DNA from: Candidatus Eiseniibacteriota bacterium
Lineage (GTDB): Bacteria > Eisenbacteria > RBG-16-71-46
Assembly: GCA_044222065.1 (NCBI GenBank)
Contig: JBGAOA010000060.1
Location: forward strand, 1 to 26,509
Direction: 5' to 3'
Length of the DNA: 26,509 nt
The translations under genes were made by a program, and so were the position numbers. This document shows positions 14,427 through 25,472 of this stretch, in pieces. The notes beneath the pieces were generated by a model. That model was not told the DNA's origin, did no database searches, and worked only from the letters and a program-made list of their open reading frames with translations. Position 1 is the stretch's first letter; each line of letters begins with the position of its first letter.

Positions 14427-14833
14427 ATCCGTTTCGGAGTCGCGCTTCGCTTCGGGCGCGGGCCATTCCGCGACCGACAAGACGACGGAGGTGATTCCAC
14501 TTCGGCCAATCGGCCCCCGATTGCGATCAACCTCCGCGGCGCACCGTCCGCCGCTTGCCTGTCGTGGTCGAGGTCTCGCGACCTCGGCGACGTGCTTCTG
14601 CAACCGCGGGGCCACGCGTGGGACGGGGCGCGAATCACGTGCGAGCGCCTTGTCGCGAGCGGCGTTCGGCGGCAGCGCCCATTCGCGGCTCGACACGGCG
14701 CCTCGTCATACGACGTCGACGTCGTGTCCGACGCCGTCCGCGCGTTGACGGTCCCGATCGCGCGAAGGGTCTGCCGATCGCGACGCGATCGAGCGTCGAC
14801 GGTCCGGTCCCGGGCGCCCTCGAACATCCGCCC

Positions 14834-14862
14834 TTGACGGGTGCACGTGCGTGCACTATGGT
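14834..14862 (+). promoter_or_regulatory. Sigma70-type promoter of lexA
   Basis: TTGACG (14834-14839), a 17-bp spacer, then TATGGT (14857-14862). AAGGAGG RBS at 14903-14909. Confidence 0.8.
14841..14856. promoter_or_regulatory. Putative LexA operator (SOS box) GTGCAC-N4-GTGCAC
   Basis: The dyad GTGCAC-GTGC-GTGCAC fills the -35/-10 spacer of the lexA promoter. It fits the TGCNC-N4-GTGCA LexA box I recall for Fibrobacter succinogenes. Confidence 0.8.
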
Positions 14863-14917
14863 GCCCGCCCGTGCCAGGTTCCCCGACGGAACCTCAACCG
14901 CGAAGGAGGCGGTGCCC

Positions 14918-15523
14918 ATGAATGACCGAGCGCGCGAAATCCTGTCGTTCATTCAGCGCTCGTCGCGAGAGCGCGGATATCCGCCGACGATCCGCGAGAT
15001 CGGACGCGAGTTCTCGATCTCTTCGACCAACGGCGTCCGCTACTACCTGAACCTGCTCGAGAAGGCCGGCCACCTGAAGCGCAAGGGCAAGATCTCGCGC
15101 GGCATCGAAGGCGTGGGTGGCGGAGTCGCAACCGCGAAGCGCGGCATCCCGATCCTCGGCCGCGTCGCTGCCGGCCAGCCGATCCTCGCCGAAGAGTCGC
15201 TCGACGGCGCGCTCGAAATGGAAGAAGTCTTCGGCGACACCGGTTCGTTGTTCGCCTTGCGCGTCCGCGGCGACAGCATGATCGAGGCAGGCATCCACGA
15301 AGGCGACTACGTGATCGTGCGGCAGCAGGAGCGTGCGGAAGCGGGAGCGATGGTGGTCGCGCTCATCGAAGACGAAGCGACGGTGAAGTACTACCGGCCG
15401 CGCCGCGATCGAATCGAGCTCCATCCCGCCAACGCCAGATACCAGCCGATCGTGGTGGAACCTTCCTCAGCCTTCCGCATTCTCGGGACGGTGCGAGGAG
15501 TGATTCGAACCCTGACGCGCTAG
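14918..15523 (+). CDS. lexA: SOS repressor LexA
   Basis: wHTH GYPPTIREIGREFSISSTNGVRYYLNLLEKAG, Ala-Gly cleavage site in ILGRVAAGQP, catalytic Ser in VRGDSM and Lys in EATVKY. 201 aa. Confidence 0.97.
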   Translation: MNDRAREILSFIQRSSRERGYPPTIREIGREFSISSTNGVRYYLNLLEKAGHLKRKGKISRGIEGVGGGVATAKRGIPILGRVAAGQPILAEESLDGALEMEEVFGDTGSLFALRVRGDSMIEAGIHEGDYVIVRQQERAEAGAMVVALIEDEATVKYYRPRRDRIELHPANARYQPIVVEPSSAFRILGTVRGVIRTLTR

Positions 15524-15544
15524 CTCGTCGTCCAATAGGTCGGG

Positions 15545-15579
15545 CTTTGATCACCGGGACTCGTTCCCGGTTTTCAAAG
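15545..15579. other. Imperfect hairpin between lexA and the TnpA-like gene (lexA terminator, or IS200/IS605-type subterminal hairpin)
   Basis: CTTTGA-TC-ACCGGGA-[CTCGT]-TCCCGGT-TT-TCAAAG: a 6+7 bp stem with a 2x2 internal loop. Confidence 0.65.
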
Positions 15580-15587
15580 GCCGCGAG

Positions 15588-15603
15588 TTGCACAAACGTT
15601 CAA
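15588..15603. promoter_or_regulatory. Second putative SOS box TTGCAC-AAAC-GTTCAA upstream of the TnpA-like gene
   Basis: One mismatch to TGCAC-N4-GTGCA, with symmetric outer T/A. It lies 10 bp upstream of the AGGAGG RBS (15614-15619). Confidence 0.65.
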
Positions 15604-15625
15604 CCGTCCCCGCAGGAGGTTCGCC

Positions 15626-16084
15626 GTGGAAGACCATTTGGCTCCCGAAGTGAAAGAAGCGCTCAACGGTCGTTGGGAGCCCGTCTACCGCAGCCAGCTC
15701 CACTACCTCGTCACGTGGAGCACGCGCGGACGCCGGCCCGTGCTGCGGCAGAAGCACATGAACACGCTGCACGCGCTGATCGAGCGCTGCTGCGAAGAGC
15801 GTGGCTTCTCGCTGCTCGAGGTCGCCTCGGGCTCGGATCACGTTCACGTGCTGCTCGCGCTCAGCCCTACGCAGAGCGTCGCGAGCGTCGTGCGCGAGCT
15901 GAAGGGCCGGACGGGGATGTCGCTCATGCAGGACCACCCCGAGCTTCGCGTCTGGCTGCGCGGCAATCTCGTGTGGGACGAGCGCTACGCGGTCGAAACC
16001 GTGAGCGCGATGCGGCTCGAACACGTCCGCCATCGGCTCCAGGCGATTCACGGCCCCGCGGAGGACTTCGCGATCGCGAGCTGA
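15626..16084 (+). CDS. IS200/IS605 TnpA (Y1 HUH) homologue that lacks the catalytic tyrosine
   Basis: LHYLVTWSTRGRRPVL, HUH motif DHVH (71-74), SVASVVRELKGRT and VWDERYAVETVS are all Y1_Tnp-like. The C-terminal helix reads LEHVRHRLQAIH where YIxxQ is expected. Strong AGGAGG RBS with a GTG start. Confidence 0.88.
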   Translation: MEDHLAPEVKEALNGRWEPVYRSQLHYLVTWSTRGRRPVLRQKHMNTLHALIERCCEERGFSLLEVASGSDHVHVLLALSPTQSVASVVRELKGRTGMSLMQDHPELRVWLRGNLVWDERYAVETVSAMRLEHVRHRLQAIHGPAEDFAIAS

Positions 16085-16255
16085 GTGCGCGAGCGGACCG
16101 TGTCCGAGCGGCGTGCACGCGGCTCGGGCGCGGCCCGGCCTGCGGACGACGGCCTGTGCAACGCGGCGAGGCAGCGCGGATCGAGCGGCCGCCGCCGGCG
16201 ATCCCGCGGTGAAGAGCGGCCGCGGGGACGCATCGCCTGGGTCTTCGAGCCGAGC

Positions 16256-17203
16256 CTACGGGTGTTGCGAGTCGCGTGAGGCGAGCATCGCCGCGGTGAG
16301 GACCAGCGCCGCTCCGACCCACTGGAGCGATCGCAATCCCTCGCCGAGGAACAGCGCCGCCGACAGCACGGCGACGACCGGCTCGAGCGTGGCGAGGATC
16401 CCCGCGTGCGAAGCCGCGAGCCGGCGAAGCCCCGCGTTGAACAAGATGAACGGAAGCAGCGTCGACAGCATGCCGAGCGCGAAGAACATGCCCCACAGCT
16501 TCGCGTCGTAGCCGGCGGCGAGGATCTTCCAAGGTGGTGTGACGATCGCCCACACGATGAACGCTATCGTGAAGGAATAGGCGAGCACGGTCTCGGGCGG
16601 GTACTTCGCGAGGCCGCGCTTGGACAGCAGGATGTAGGTCGCGAACCAGATCGCGGAGCTGAAGCCGACGACCCAGTGGAGCGGCCGCGCCTGGAGCGCG
16701 ATCGGATCCACGTTTCCGACGAGCAGCGCCGTGCCGCCGATCGCGCACGCGAGCGCGATCGTCGTGACGGCGCGCACGCGCCGTCCGCGCGCGGCGTCCA
16801 CGAGCACGATCAGGGCGGGGGCGAGGTATTGGATCAGGATCGAGAGCCCGACCCCGAGCTTCGAGATCGAGTAGTAGTAGCTGCCCTGCACCGTCGCGAC
16901 GCCGAGCAGGCCGAGCAGGACGAAGTAGGGAAGGTCGCGCGGCGCGATGAGCAGCTTTCGGGGCGATCGAATCGCGAGCCACGGCAGCAGCACCGCGAGG
17001 GCGAAGAACAGCCGCAGTTCGACGACCGCGAGCGCCGGCACGGCGAAGTCGCGGAACACGAAGCGCGCGAGCGTCGCGGACGTGCCCCAGAGCGTCGCCG
17101 CACCGAAGACGAGCAGGCGGCCCGTCGCATCGTGCCTCGGCGCCGCGTGCGCCGCTCCGTCGTCCGCGCGCGTGTCGCCGCCGGCCGTCGCGCGATCGCT
17201 CAC
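16256..17203 (-). CDS. EamA/DMT family transporter
   Basis: About 10 TM helices in two repeats. Motifs AATLWGTS, LIQYLAPALIV and GILATLEPVVAVLSAALFLGE. Confidence 0.93.
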   Translation of the reverse strand: MSDRATAGGDTRADDGAAHAAPRHDATGRLLVFGAATLWGTSATLARFVFRDFAVPALAVVELRLFFALAVLLPWLAIRSPRKLLIAPRDLPYFVLLGLLGVATVQGSYYYSISKLGVGLSILIQYLAPALIVLVDAARGRRVRAVTTIALACAIGGTALLVGNVDPIALQARPLHWVVGFSSAIWFATYILLSKRGLAKYPPETVLAYSFTIAFIVWAIVTPPWKILAAGYDAKLWGMFFALGMLSTLLPFILFNAGLRRLAASHAGILATLEPVVAVLSAALFLGEGLRSLQWVGAALVLTAAMLASRDSQHP

Positions 17204-23977: not shown

Positions 23978-25384
23978 TCACTTGCCCACGCAGAAGCGGC
24001 TGAAGATCCGCTCGAGCAGGTCTTCGCTGACGTTGCGGCCCGTGACTTCGCCGATCGCCGCGATGCCTTCGCGCAATTCCAGCGCGACGATTTCGCCGGG
24101 CTCACCCGCGCGTCCGGCGACGGCGGCGCGCTCGAACGCGGCGCGTGCGCGAGCGAGCGCCTCGGCGTGGCGTGGATTCGCAACCGCCTGCCCGAGGTCG
24201 CCGCCGCCATCGCCGCCCCCGAGCAACTCCGCGAGCGCGGTGCGCAGCGCGTCGAGCCCGGCGCCCGCGAGCGCCGAGACCTGGACGAGGCGGTGCGTCG
24301 CGCCTGCGAGCGCGCCGGCGAGTGCGTCCAGCGCCACGGCCTCGCCGAGATCCGACTTGTTGAGCGCCACGAGCACGCGCTTGCCCGCGAACGAGCGGGC
24401 GAGAGCCTCGTCCTCGGCCGCGAGGGGACGCGAGCCGTCCACGACCCAGATCGCGAGCGCGGCGCTCGCGAGCGCCGCCTCGGCACGCGCGACGCCCTCG
24501 CGCTCGACCGCCCCGGCCGGCGCGCGCAATCCGGCCGTGTCGCTCAGCGTGACGCGCACGCCGGCGATCTCGATCGCCTCGCTCACGCGGTCGCGCGTCG
24601 AGCCCGCGACCGGCGTCACGATCGCGCGCGACTCGCCGAGGAGGGCGTTGAAGAGCGACGACTTGCCCGCGTTCGGCCGGCCGACGATCGGGACCGCGAC
24701 CCCTTCGCGCACGGCGCGCGCGTACGCCGAGCCGCCGAGCCAGCCCGCGAGATCCGCGGCGAGCGCCTCGATCGCGGCGATGCCCTCGGGCGGCACCTCG
24801 ATCCCGCCCACGTCCTCGGCGAAGTCCACGCGCGCCTCGACGTCGGCGAGCACGTCGGCCGCGCGCTCGGCGAGCGCGTCGAGCGCGCGCGACAGCCCGC
24901 CCGAGAGCTGCGGACCGCGAGCGCGTGGGCCGCGCGCGTCTCGGCGTGGATGACGTCCGCGACCGCCTCCGCGCGCGAGGTCGAGCCGCCCGTTGAGGAA
25001 CGCCCGCAGCGTGAACTCGCCGGGCCGGGCGAGCCTCGCCCCGGCCGAGAGCAGCGCCTCGAGCACGCGCGCGGCCGACAGCGCGCCACCGTGGCACGAC
25101 AGCTCGACGACGTCCTCGCGGGTGTAGGAATGCGAGGCGCGGAACACGGCCGCAACGACCTCGTCGAGTGCGGCGCCGCGCGGCGCCGCGCCGTCGCCCG
25201 CGAGCGCGGCCGCCCGCGCGGAGCCGACGTGCAGCGTGTGGCTCGCCGCGGCGGCGAGCGGCGCGCGGCCGTCGAACACCGCGTCCGCGACCGCAACCGC
25301 GCGCGCACCCGAGACGCGGACGACCGCGAGCCCTGCGACGCCGGGGGCGGTCGCGAGCGCGGCGATGGTGTCTTCGGTGGTCAT
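23978..25384 (-). CDS. mnmE: tRNA modification GTPase MnmE/TrmE, with a short internally frameshifted segment at 24911-24973
   Basis: Motifs [57 protein letters not shown] and the C-terminal FSRFCVGK. Confidence 0.95.
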
Positions 25385-25472
25385 GCGGGAGACGGCTCCC
25401 TGGCGCAGGGCGCGCAAACGAGAAGGCGCCGGGTCGCGAGCGCGAACCCGGCGCCTCGTGGATTCGGACGCG

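Follow-up and report, generated by a model that had tools for sequence, protein, structure and literature searches.

A tyrosine-less IS200/IS605 transposase homologue fixed behind lexA is a probable, putatively LexA-regulated helper of the DNA-damage response in one order of Candidatus Eisenbacteria

In the sections cited here of a survey of Y1 transposases (TnpA), these proteins are defined by an HUH motif together with a catalytic tyrosine, and incomplete cores were filtered out before the tree was built (PMC6006769). Domesticated members are known as TnpA-REP/RAYT, single-locus Y1 HUH proteins that keep the Tyr, are monomeric and are flanked by REP sequences. A LexA box in the promoter of a HUH transposase gene is reported in part of the account of ISCR, whose genes are IS91-like and located on mobile elements (PMC13393415). 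Among SOS mutagenesis cassettes, the lexA-ImuB-C-dinB and imuA-imuB-dnaE2 types have been described in passages of two papers (PMC3765255, PMC12926913), stand-alone ImuB-C genes with dinB and lexA in one of them (PMC3765255), and the re-use of dead enzymes as accessory subunits is a known theme in both. A dead TnpA is not among the cassette components described there, and the words 'transposase' and 'HUH' are absent from the main texts.

Here, we describe a gene of an uncultured Ca. Eisenbacteria member, termed tnpA*, which resembles each of these systems in part. It is located in the window, by which we mean the whole stretch of 26,509 nucleotides analyzed (contig JBGAOA010000060.1), taken from a genome that is 94% complete; the feature coordinates are collected in Table 1. 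With the IS200/IS605 TnpA proteins of ISDra2 and IS608, TnpA* shares the Y1_Tnp domain, the fold, the size, the dimer-interface residues and, in the family of the window (f1), the HUH motif. In contrast to them, it has no catalytic Tyr, no metal-binding Gln and no tnpB, and it occupies one fixed chromosomal locus per genome, with a LexA-type operator and a housekeeping-like purifying selection. TnpA-REP/RAYT (4er8, VIA Z 10.5) is comparable as a domesticated single-locus protein, but TnpA* lacks the Tyr, keeps IS200-type dimer residues and shows no repeated flanks in our searches. Unlike the ISCR genes, tnpA* is chromosomal and Tyr-less. With the mutagenesis cassettes, the locus has in common lexA, a small beta-rich DUF6504 protein and dinB. 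A literature search, with subscription journals and paper supplements mostly outside its reach, returned no published description of a lexA-linked Tyr-less tnpA* and no literature on 'Eisenbacteria' with 'lexA'.

Table 1. Features of the lexA-tnpA* region, with positions counted from the first nucleotide of the window.
Feature	Position	Strand	Basis
lexA sigma70-type promoter, TTGACG, 17 nt, TATGGT	14834..14862	+	promoter scan; layout same in relatives
LexA-type operator GTGCACGTGCGTGCAC, between -35 and -10 of lexA	14841..14856	.	strict pattern in relatives
lexA, 201 aa	14918..15523	+	TIGR00498 182 bits vs cut-off 111; Pfam LexA_DNA_bind and Peptidase_S24
Hairpin ACCGGGA-CTCGT-TCCCGGT with T-tract, between lexA and the second operator	15553..15575	+	comparison within f1
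Second LexA-type operator TTGCACAAACGTTCAA, 10 nt 5' of the tnpA* RBS	15588..15603	.	matrix and shuffles; conserved site
RBS AGGAGG of tnpA*	15614..15619	+	sequence; conserved in relatives
tnpA*, Y1/HUH transposase homologue without the Tyr, 152 aa	15626..16084	+	Pfam, NCBIfam, homologue alignment, structure model
HUH motif H72-V73-H74	15839..15847	+	f1 retains it; f2 and f3 have lost it
Codon of R137, in place of the catalytic Tyr	16034..16036	+	alignments; unchanged in independent DNA run
C-terminal F-A-I-A-S, a hydrophobic-A-x-A-S tail, candidate protease tag	16067..16081	+	homologue ends

The gene starts with GTG, is separated from the lexA stop by 102 nt and is followed in the window by a convergent EamA gene. 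Its GC3 of 0.86 (lexA, 0.81) and its RBS bear out the preliminary description of this DNA, which had reported an intact, host-like Y1 ORF behind lexA. TnpA* reaches 84 bits with Pfam Y1_Tnp and exceeds the cut-off of the NCBIfam IS200/IS605 model NF033573 (85 vs 55), while it stays below that of the RAYT model NF047646 (37.2 vs 80). A structure model (AlphaFold2, 135 sequences, mean pLDDT 86) matches the TnpA structures of ISDra2 (2xm3/2xo6) and IS608 (2vhg/2a6m) with a Foldseek E of 2.5e-10, and VIA comparison with IS200/IS605 TnpA gave a Z of 16.4 and an rmsd of 2.1 over 110 aligned residues; only Y1_Tnp clusters were returned by a search of the ESM Atlas. In the 94% complete source genome, tnpA* is the sole Y1_Tnp match and no match to the TnpB family was found anywhere, in line with the earlier remark that no tnpB adjoins the gene. 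Elsewhere in the window, an mnmE/trmE-like ORF at 23978-25417, near a parA/parB/rsmG/mnmG block, seems by eye to start out of frame, which suggests a contig error or a frameshift.

The catalytic residues were compared with those of ISDra2 TnpA, which aligns without gaps. R137 stands at the position of Y132, I141 at that of Q136 and L28 at that of the N-terminal His, in agreement with the by-eye placement of R137, I141 and an N-terminal Leu in the preliminary description. The only tyrosines of TnpA* are Y21, Y27 and Y121, and a sequence check found no TA dinucleotide between Y121 and the stop, again as described before. For residue counts, the best 120 of 952 database homologues were aligned. 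In these 120, the Tyr of helix alphaD (Y---Q) is replaced by R137 throughout (120/120), the third metal ligand, a Gln four residues past the Tyr, is mostly Leu, and H72, H74 and H142 are present in 119/120, 120/120 and 120/120, respectively; a Tyr beyond the last strand occurs in 2/120, both times within the C-terminal tail. Likewise, no Tyr was found at position 137 in 50 f1/f3 loci. Codons 136 and 137 read CAT and CGG. An assembly error at these codons was ruled out by the codon check, by a contig from another study's DNA run that spans 14825-16156 with three differences, none of which affects them, and by the homologue alignment, since R137 is present in all 120 of the best-scoring sequences. 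By sequence comparison, TnpA* is a descendant of one IS200/IS605 TnpA that lost the Tyr nucleophile and the metal Gln.

To map the distribution of the gene, 193 genomes from the phylum were searched with a profile, 95 within the order of the window and 98 outside it. Orthologues were detected in 89/95 genomes of this one Ca. Eisenbacteria order, comprising 77/83 in f1 (the window's own genome counted), 9/9 in f3 and 3/3 in f2; the unpublished genome G026 is included here and in the synteny tally, and the conclusions are independent of it. Six f1 genomes gave no match; since lexA is likewise unmatched in five of them and truncated at a contig end in the other one, these absences are ascribed to assembly gaps. 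tnpA* follows lexA directly in 88 of the 89 genomes (88/88 assessable; the gene of G034 sits at a contig end), with lexA 5' on the same strand in 54/54 fetched loci, among them G037 from outside the 89-genome set, in 34/34 further f1 genomes according to their coordinates, and in G026. In G027 (L034), a short extra gene, glyoxalase-like by eye, separates the two. Outside the order, 7/98 genomes gave weak matches; the six that were fetched are ordinary TnpAs, Tyr-bearing or truncated and located away from lexA, and were rejected as orthologues. Among 51 related loci (29 labelled Ca. Eisenbacteria, 17 without lineage and 5 of other lineages), all carry lexA 5' and the box, an overlap with the sampled genomes making this count non-independent; the five records with other phylum labels and the same lexA-tnpA* block are probably mislabelled or misbinned.

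Signs of mobility (copies at unrelated sites, a patchy spread) are absent. The window's genome contains a single match, and in G113 the additional copies comprise the entire lexA-tnpA*-eamA region: two frameshifted sets on small contigs (L069, L070), probably owing to a strain mixture in the bin. Of the two end hairpins of an IS, the left one may be represented by a conserved hairpin 5' of tnpA*, and inspection of 30 loci by eye showed no conserved sequence 3' of the gene. In flank searches, the 102 nt 5' of tnpA* have no match at E < 0.29 other than themselves, and the downstream 171 nt yield only short GC-rich matches; REP-like repeats or multicopy ends around tnpA* were not found. On the evidence of synteny, tnpA* is fixed behind lexA across the order.

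Selection was estimated within genera by NG86, which is rough at this GC content. The median dN/dS of tnpA* is 0.20 in f1 (lexA 0.24, 33 pairs) and 0.35 in f3 (lexA 0.41, 11 pairs); the one f2 pair (86 codons) gives 0.46 vs 0.23 for lexA, indicating weaker constraint. In 15/15 non-overlapping pairs, the upper 95% bootstrap bound of tnpA* stays below 1, and by this measure the gene is under purifying selection. When 20 tnpA* orthologues were placed in a quick tree with the 60 other single-domain Y1 proteins that scored best, the orthologues grouped together, apart from the rest (SH-aLRT 89). Multi-genome genera are recovered in 11/14 cases by the tnpA* tree and in 13/14 by that of lexA. Congruence with recA was not found inside f1, as the rank correlation is 0.17 for tnpA* and 0.04 for lexA (12 genomes), and 3/11 and 4/11 strong splits, respectively, conflict with recA among 22 genomes. 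Since both short genes agree poorly with recA, they leave the deep f1 branching unresolved, and vertical descent, for which the preliminary description had suggested a comparison with the species tree, is supported at the family and genus level only. The dinB and lexA trees give no resolution of the branching order of the families. One probable natural pseudogene was observed in G015 (L161), where tnpA* carries an internal deletion and a frameshift and the intergenic region has neither hairpin nor box; the gene is therefore dispensable at least in this genome.

Next to these data stand the regulatory signals. The lexA promoter is the sole promoter-like site within 14600-16400 (0.0 expected in shuffles), and a strict operator pattern is located 5' of lexA in 50/54 loci, one of the four misses lying at a contig edge. 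Using a matrix trained on lexA promoters alone (27 genera), TTGCACAAACGTTCAA is the best-scoring site of the lexA-tnpA* intergenic region, and 1/1000 dinucleotide shuffles reach its score, confirming the copy of the lexA-promoter palindrome noticed earlier before the RBS. The copy is imperfect and, with 6.8 bits against at least 10 for 38 other genomic sites, rather weak; its weight therefore rests on positional conservation: in 52/54 loci the score of the tnpA* box is reached by at most 1/100 shuffles, and a box of the TGCAC-N4-GT(G/T)CA type precedes tnpA* in 53/54 loci by pattern, the sole miss being the broken gene. A related box overlaps the recA promoter in 21/29 loci, a set without G026 and with two loci from outside the order; in f1, such a box also lies 5' of the dinB module in 23/23 loci. 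This set of genes, lexA, recA, dinB and tnpA*, marks the motif as a putative LexA box.

Further observations concern these genes and boxes. In nine f1 genomes (L106-L108), recA is split near model position 194-198 inside one long frame of 580-817 aa, which looks like an intein. The box 5' of lexA reads TGAAC-N4-GTTCA in the outgroup family f10 (L151-L153, L155) vs TGCAC-N4-GTGCA in the order, an operator drift within the class. A strong LexA-type box was also found about 145-290 nt 5' of mraZ in 22/23 loci scored (L111 / L172, G000:C51:36346; L162-L185); mraZ usually heads the division and cell-wall cluster, and direct SOS control of division genes in the order is possible.

A sigma70 promoter at the tnpA* box was found neither by scan nor on anchoring 42 intergenic regions at the box; consequently, the box may either belong to a promoter of unrecognised type or, lying behind a leaky terminator, work as a roadblock. 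The hairpin with its T-tract between lexA and the box, missed by the preliminary description, is likely such a leaky intrinsic terminator and possibly a relic of the left end of the IS. It is positioned 14-18 nt 5' of the box in 36/43 f1 loci, and its stem pairs show some compensatory changes among 34 loci; a strict terminator scan does not call it. Altogether, Tyr loss, synteny, purifying selection and the box shared with recA and dinB give good support to the earlier proposal of a host-retained, single-locus gene rather than a mobile IS, and the three contrary outcomes named there at the sequence level (a Tyr in reads or homologues, multiple copies, or absence beside lexA with neutral decay) were not encountered. 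We conclude that tnpA* is very probably a domesticated, non-transposing and LexA-regulated gene.

The families differ in what lies downstream. dinB is found 3' of tnpA* in 11/11 f2/f3 loci, with DUF6504 in between in six of them, and in 0/43 f1 loci. In f1, the dinB module has a box of its own at another location, and the convergent EamA gene usually comes next after tnpA*. No DUF6504 match was found in the operon of the f3 genus g29; in g30 and g31 of the same family, the tnpA* stop overlaps the DUF6504 start. For comparison, 17 of the 92 outgroup genomes with a lexA match were fetched, mostly by best score. In 14/17, lexA runs directly into (DUF6504-)dinB, one ends at a contig edge and two have no dinB nearby; a tnpA-like match was present in 0/17. 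Where the flank is long enough, dinB is nearly always followed by DUF72, inside and outside the order. As the outgroup arrangement is lexA-(DUF6504)-dinB-DUF72 without tnpA, the IS was probably inserted into an SOS mutagenesis operon and then domesticated, and a single insertion in the ancestor of the order is the simplest reading of the operon comparison. In such a history, the ancestral operon would have been lexA-DUF6504-dinB-DUF72, with the IS entering between lexA and DUF6504/dinB; behind the terminator-like hairpin of the IS, a second LexA box would have arisen, and in f1 the dinB module would later have left with its own box while tnpA* remained. From its size, its context and a conserved C-terminal Trp, we infer that DUF6504 is a stand-alone ImuB-C. 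A relationship between DUF6504 and TnpA* was considered and dismissed (probability 0.1%). Two related loci were noted besides: a DUF6504-dinB-DUF72 operon with a strong box (G000:C58, L109) and a second DUF6504-like gene, equipped with a promoter and a LexA-type box of its own (G000:C83, L110:964-1218).

With regard to the protein, the families retain different parts of the ancestral TnpA. The IS608 dimer residues P73, V77, I113 and T115, given in part of PMC3479197, correspond to P81, V85, V123 and T125 of TnpA*, which are kept in f1, mostly kept in f3 and lost in f2; f1 also keeps HUH and H142. Position 137 is R or K in 8/8 f3 loci, of which 0/8 have an intact HUH. In f2, the HUH is lost in 3/3 loci and the protein ends near W117, the C-terminal third being gone. 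All three families share R90 and R108 without exception; by homology with TnpA-REP (PMC3479197) and with the structure of IS608 TnpA, R90 would lie on the helix facing the hairpin DNA. The A-x-A-S end is present in 117/120 homologues (best 120 of 952) vs 2/1600 long ORFs of the genome, is confined to f1 and varies in its distance from the core. The tmRNA tag of the genome ends in ALAA. According to part of PMC9368063, tmRNA-tagged proteins are degraded by ClpXP, which traps RecN and UvrA after damage, and by analogy the tail may be a degron like the tmRNA tag. Many proteins of 250-300 aa with tandem Y1 domains were also seen (P0128, P0134, P0136, P0149, P0166 and others), some with halves lacking HUH or Tyr; these are possible single-chain dimers.

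How could a transposase without its nucleophile serve the SOS response? In parts of a study of IS608 TnpA, the enzyme is reported to localise to stalled replication forks, to bind DNA of fork-like structure and to interact with DnaN (PMC5027513). By analogy, a Tyr-less TnpA* induced together with recA and dinB would most plausibly keep this fork targeting without cutting. Upon DNA damage, LexA would be cleaved and TnpA* be made; it would dimerise in the usual TnpA manner and bind hairpin or fork-like ssDNA at stalled forks, where it would protect the DNA, or help to place or restrain the co-regulated DinB/DUF6504/RecA translesion machinery, before removal in f1 via the tmRNA-tag-like tail. With confidence a little short of even, we therefore propose a short-lived, non-cleaving hairpin/fork DNA-binding SOS accessory. 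The evidence counted for it comprises R137, synteny, dN/dS, the shared box, dinB linkage in f2/f3, the outgroup operons, the dimer residues, R90, the fold and the fork binding of IS608. Against it stands that f1, the family with the strongest selection, has tnpA* outside the dinB operon; the broken copy of G015, g29 without DUF6504, the lack of a sigma70 promoter at the box and the restriction of the tail to f1 count on the same side. Moreover, f2 lacks the part after W117 as well as the dimer residues and shows weaker constraint, so one mechanism may not cover all families. A more specific version, in which an IS200 within the ancestral lexA-ImuB-C-dinB operon became a damage-induced, protease-tagged, non-cleaving dimer that recognises ssDNA in fork or hairpin form and acts as a gate for the DinB translesion complex, a UmuD/ImuA-like role with a transposase fold, is possible at best and rather unlikely as a whole.

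One alternative, which we consider unlikely, is that TnpA* regulates its own locus by binding the relic left-end hairpin, as DNA or RNA, or LexA itself, and thereby tunes read-through or SOS shut-off; in a variant, the box may be a LexA roadblock behind the leaky terminator rather than the operator of a separate promoter. The linkage to lexA, unbroken in all 88 assessable loci while dinB is separable, argues for it, as do the conserved stem GGGAGC..GCTCCC with its spacing to the box and the missing sigma70 promoter. RNA-library contigs of two studies, also counted in its favour, span the hairpin and cover tnpA* without differences; they carry no strand or level information, may include DNA, cover lexA too sparsely for ranking genes and prove neither a single transcript nor RNA origin. 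However, the hairpin was not found in 7/43 f1 loci whose protein is mostly intact, and in G027 the box abuts the RBS behind the extra gene, which implies an own promoter for tnpA* in that genome.

Somewhat less probable still is a dominant-negative inhibitor of IS200/IS605 transposition, which would be induced as ssDNA accumulates and poison active TnpA dimers or cover IS ends. The preliminary description had offered this function beside that of an SOS accessory; operon history points more to the SOS/mutagenesis accessory. f1 does retain the dimer and hairpin-side residues, tnpA* is the sole Y1 match in most genomes of the order, G015 with its broken copy carries another Tyr-bearing Y1 gene, and active HUH transposases under the control of LexA have a precedent in ISCR (PMC13393415, in part). 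Yet other Y1 genes are rare in these assemblies and coexist with intact tnpA* in Tyr-bearing form in G102 and G125, Y1 matches are not evidently more frequent in outgroups that lack tnpA* (the 7/98 above), and f2 has lost the dimer strand that a dominant-negative protein needs, which together make the inhibitor less likely; the Y1 counts are weak either way because metagenome bins lose IS copies. Hardly different in probability, if anything lower, is a metal enzyme with new chemistry in f1, where H72, H74 and H142 would bind a metal and DNA would be hydrolysed or processed via water, Y121 or Y21. The near-complete conservation of these His residues among the best 120 of 952 homologues fits, as does an extra alphaD His that serves as metal ligand in TnpA-REP according to part of PMC3479197. 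On the other hand, f3 has lost the HUH in 8/8 loci under selection still comparable to that on lexA, f2 has lost it in 3/3, Y21 varies, and H142 and Y121 are both inherited, aligning with the His after the Gln in YIESQH of ISDra2 and with the Tyr that active enzymes carry in the W..Y strand motif, respectively.

It is very improbable that the reading frame persists chiefly as a leader or spacer whose translation couples downstream expression, with little function of the protein: the stop-start overlap with DUF6504 in g30 and g31 and the eroded f2 gene are in favour of this reading, but in the window, which belongs to f1, no same-strand gene follows tnpA* (EamA is convergent), dozens of positions are near-invariant in f1 and dN/dS is about 0.2, and for f1 this reading is largely excluded by sequence comparison. 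A decaying IS remnant or an assembly error, suggested by the IS200/IS605 transposase annotation (NF033573 above cut-off) and the broken orthologue in G015, has a negligible chance given the shared Tyr loss, the selection, the fixed locus, the conserved box and the independent DNA run.

TnpA* is a small protein suited to purification, for which an operator and candidate partners can be named. The domesticated Y1 transposases described in the papers cited here (TnpA-REP/RAYT) keep their chemistry; tnpA* is a dead one under selection as strong as that on lexA, and its insertion site, its new operator and the stepwise loss of catalysis can be traced over three families. The finding also defines a putative LexA-type box for Eisenbacteria and indicates that 'IS200 transposase' annotations adjoining lexA can be host SOS genes. 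Consequently, tnpA* probably encodes a hitherto undescribed factor that assists the DNA-damage response in these bacteria.
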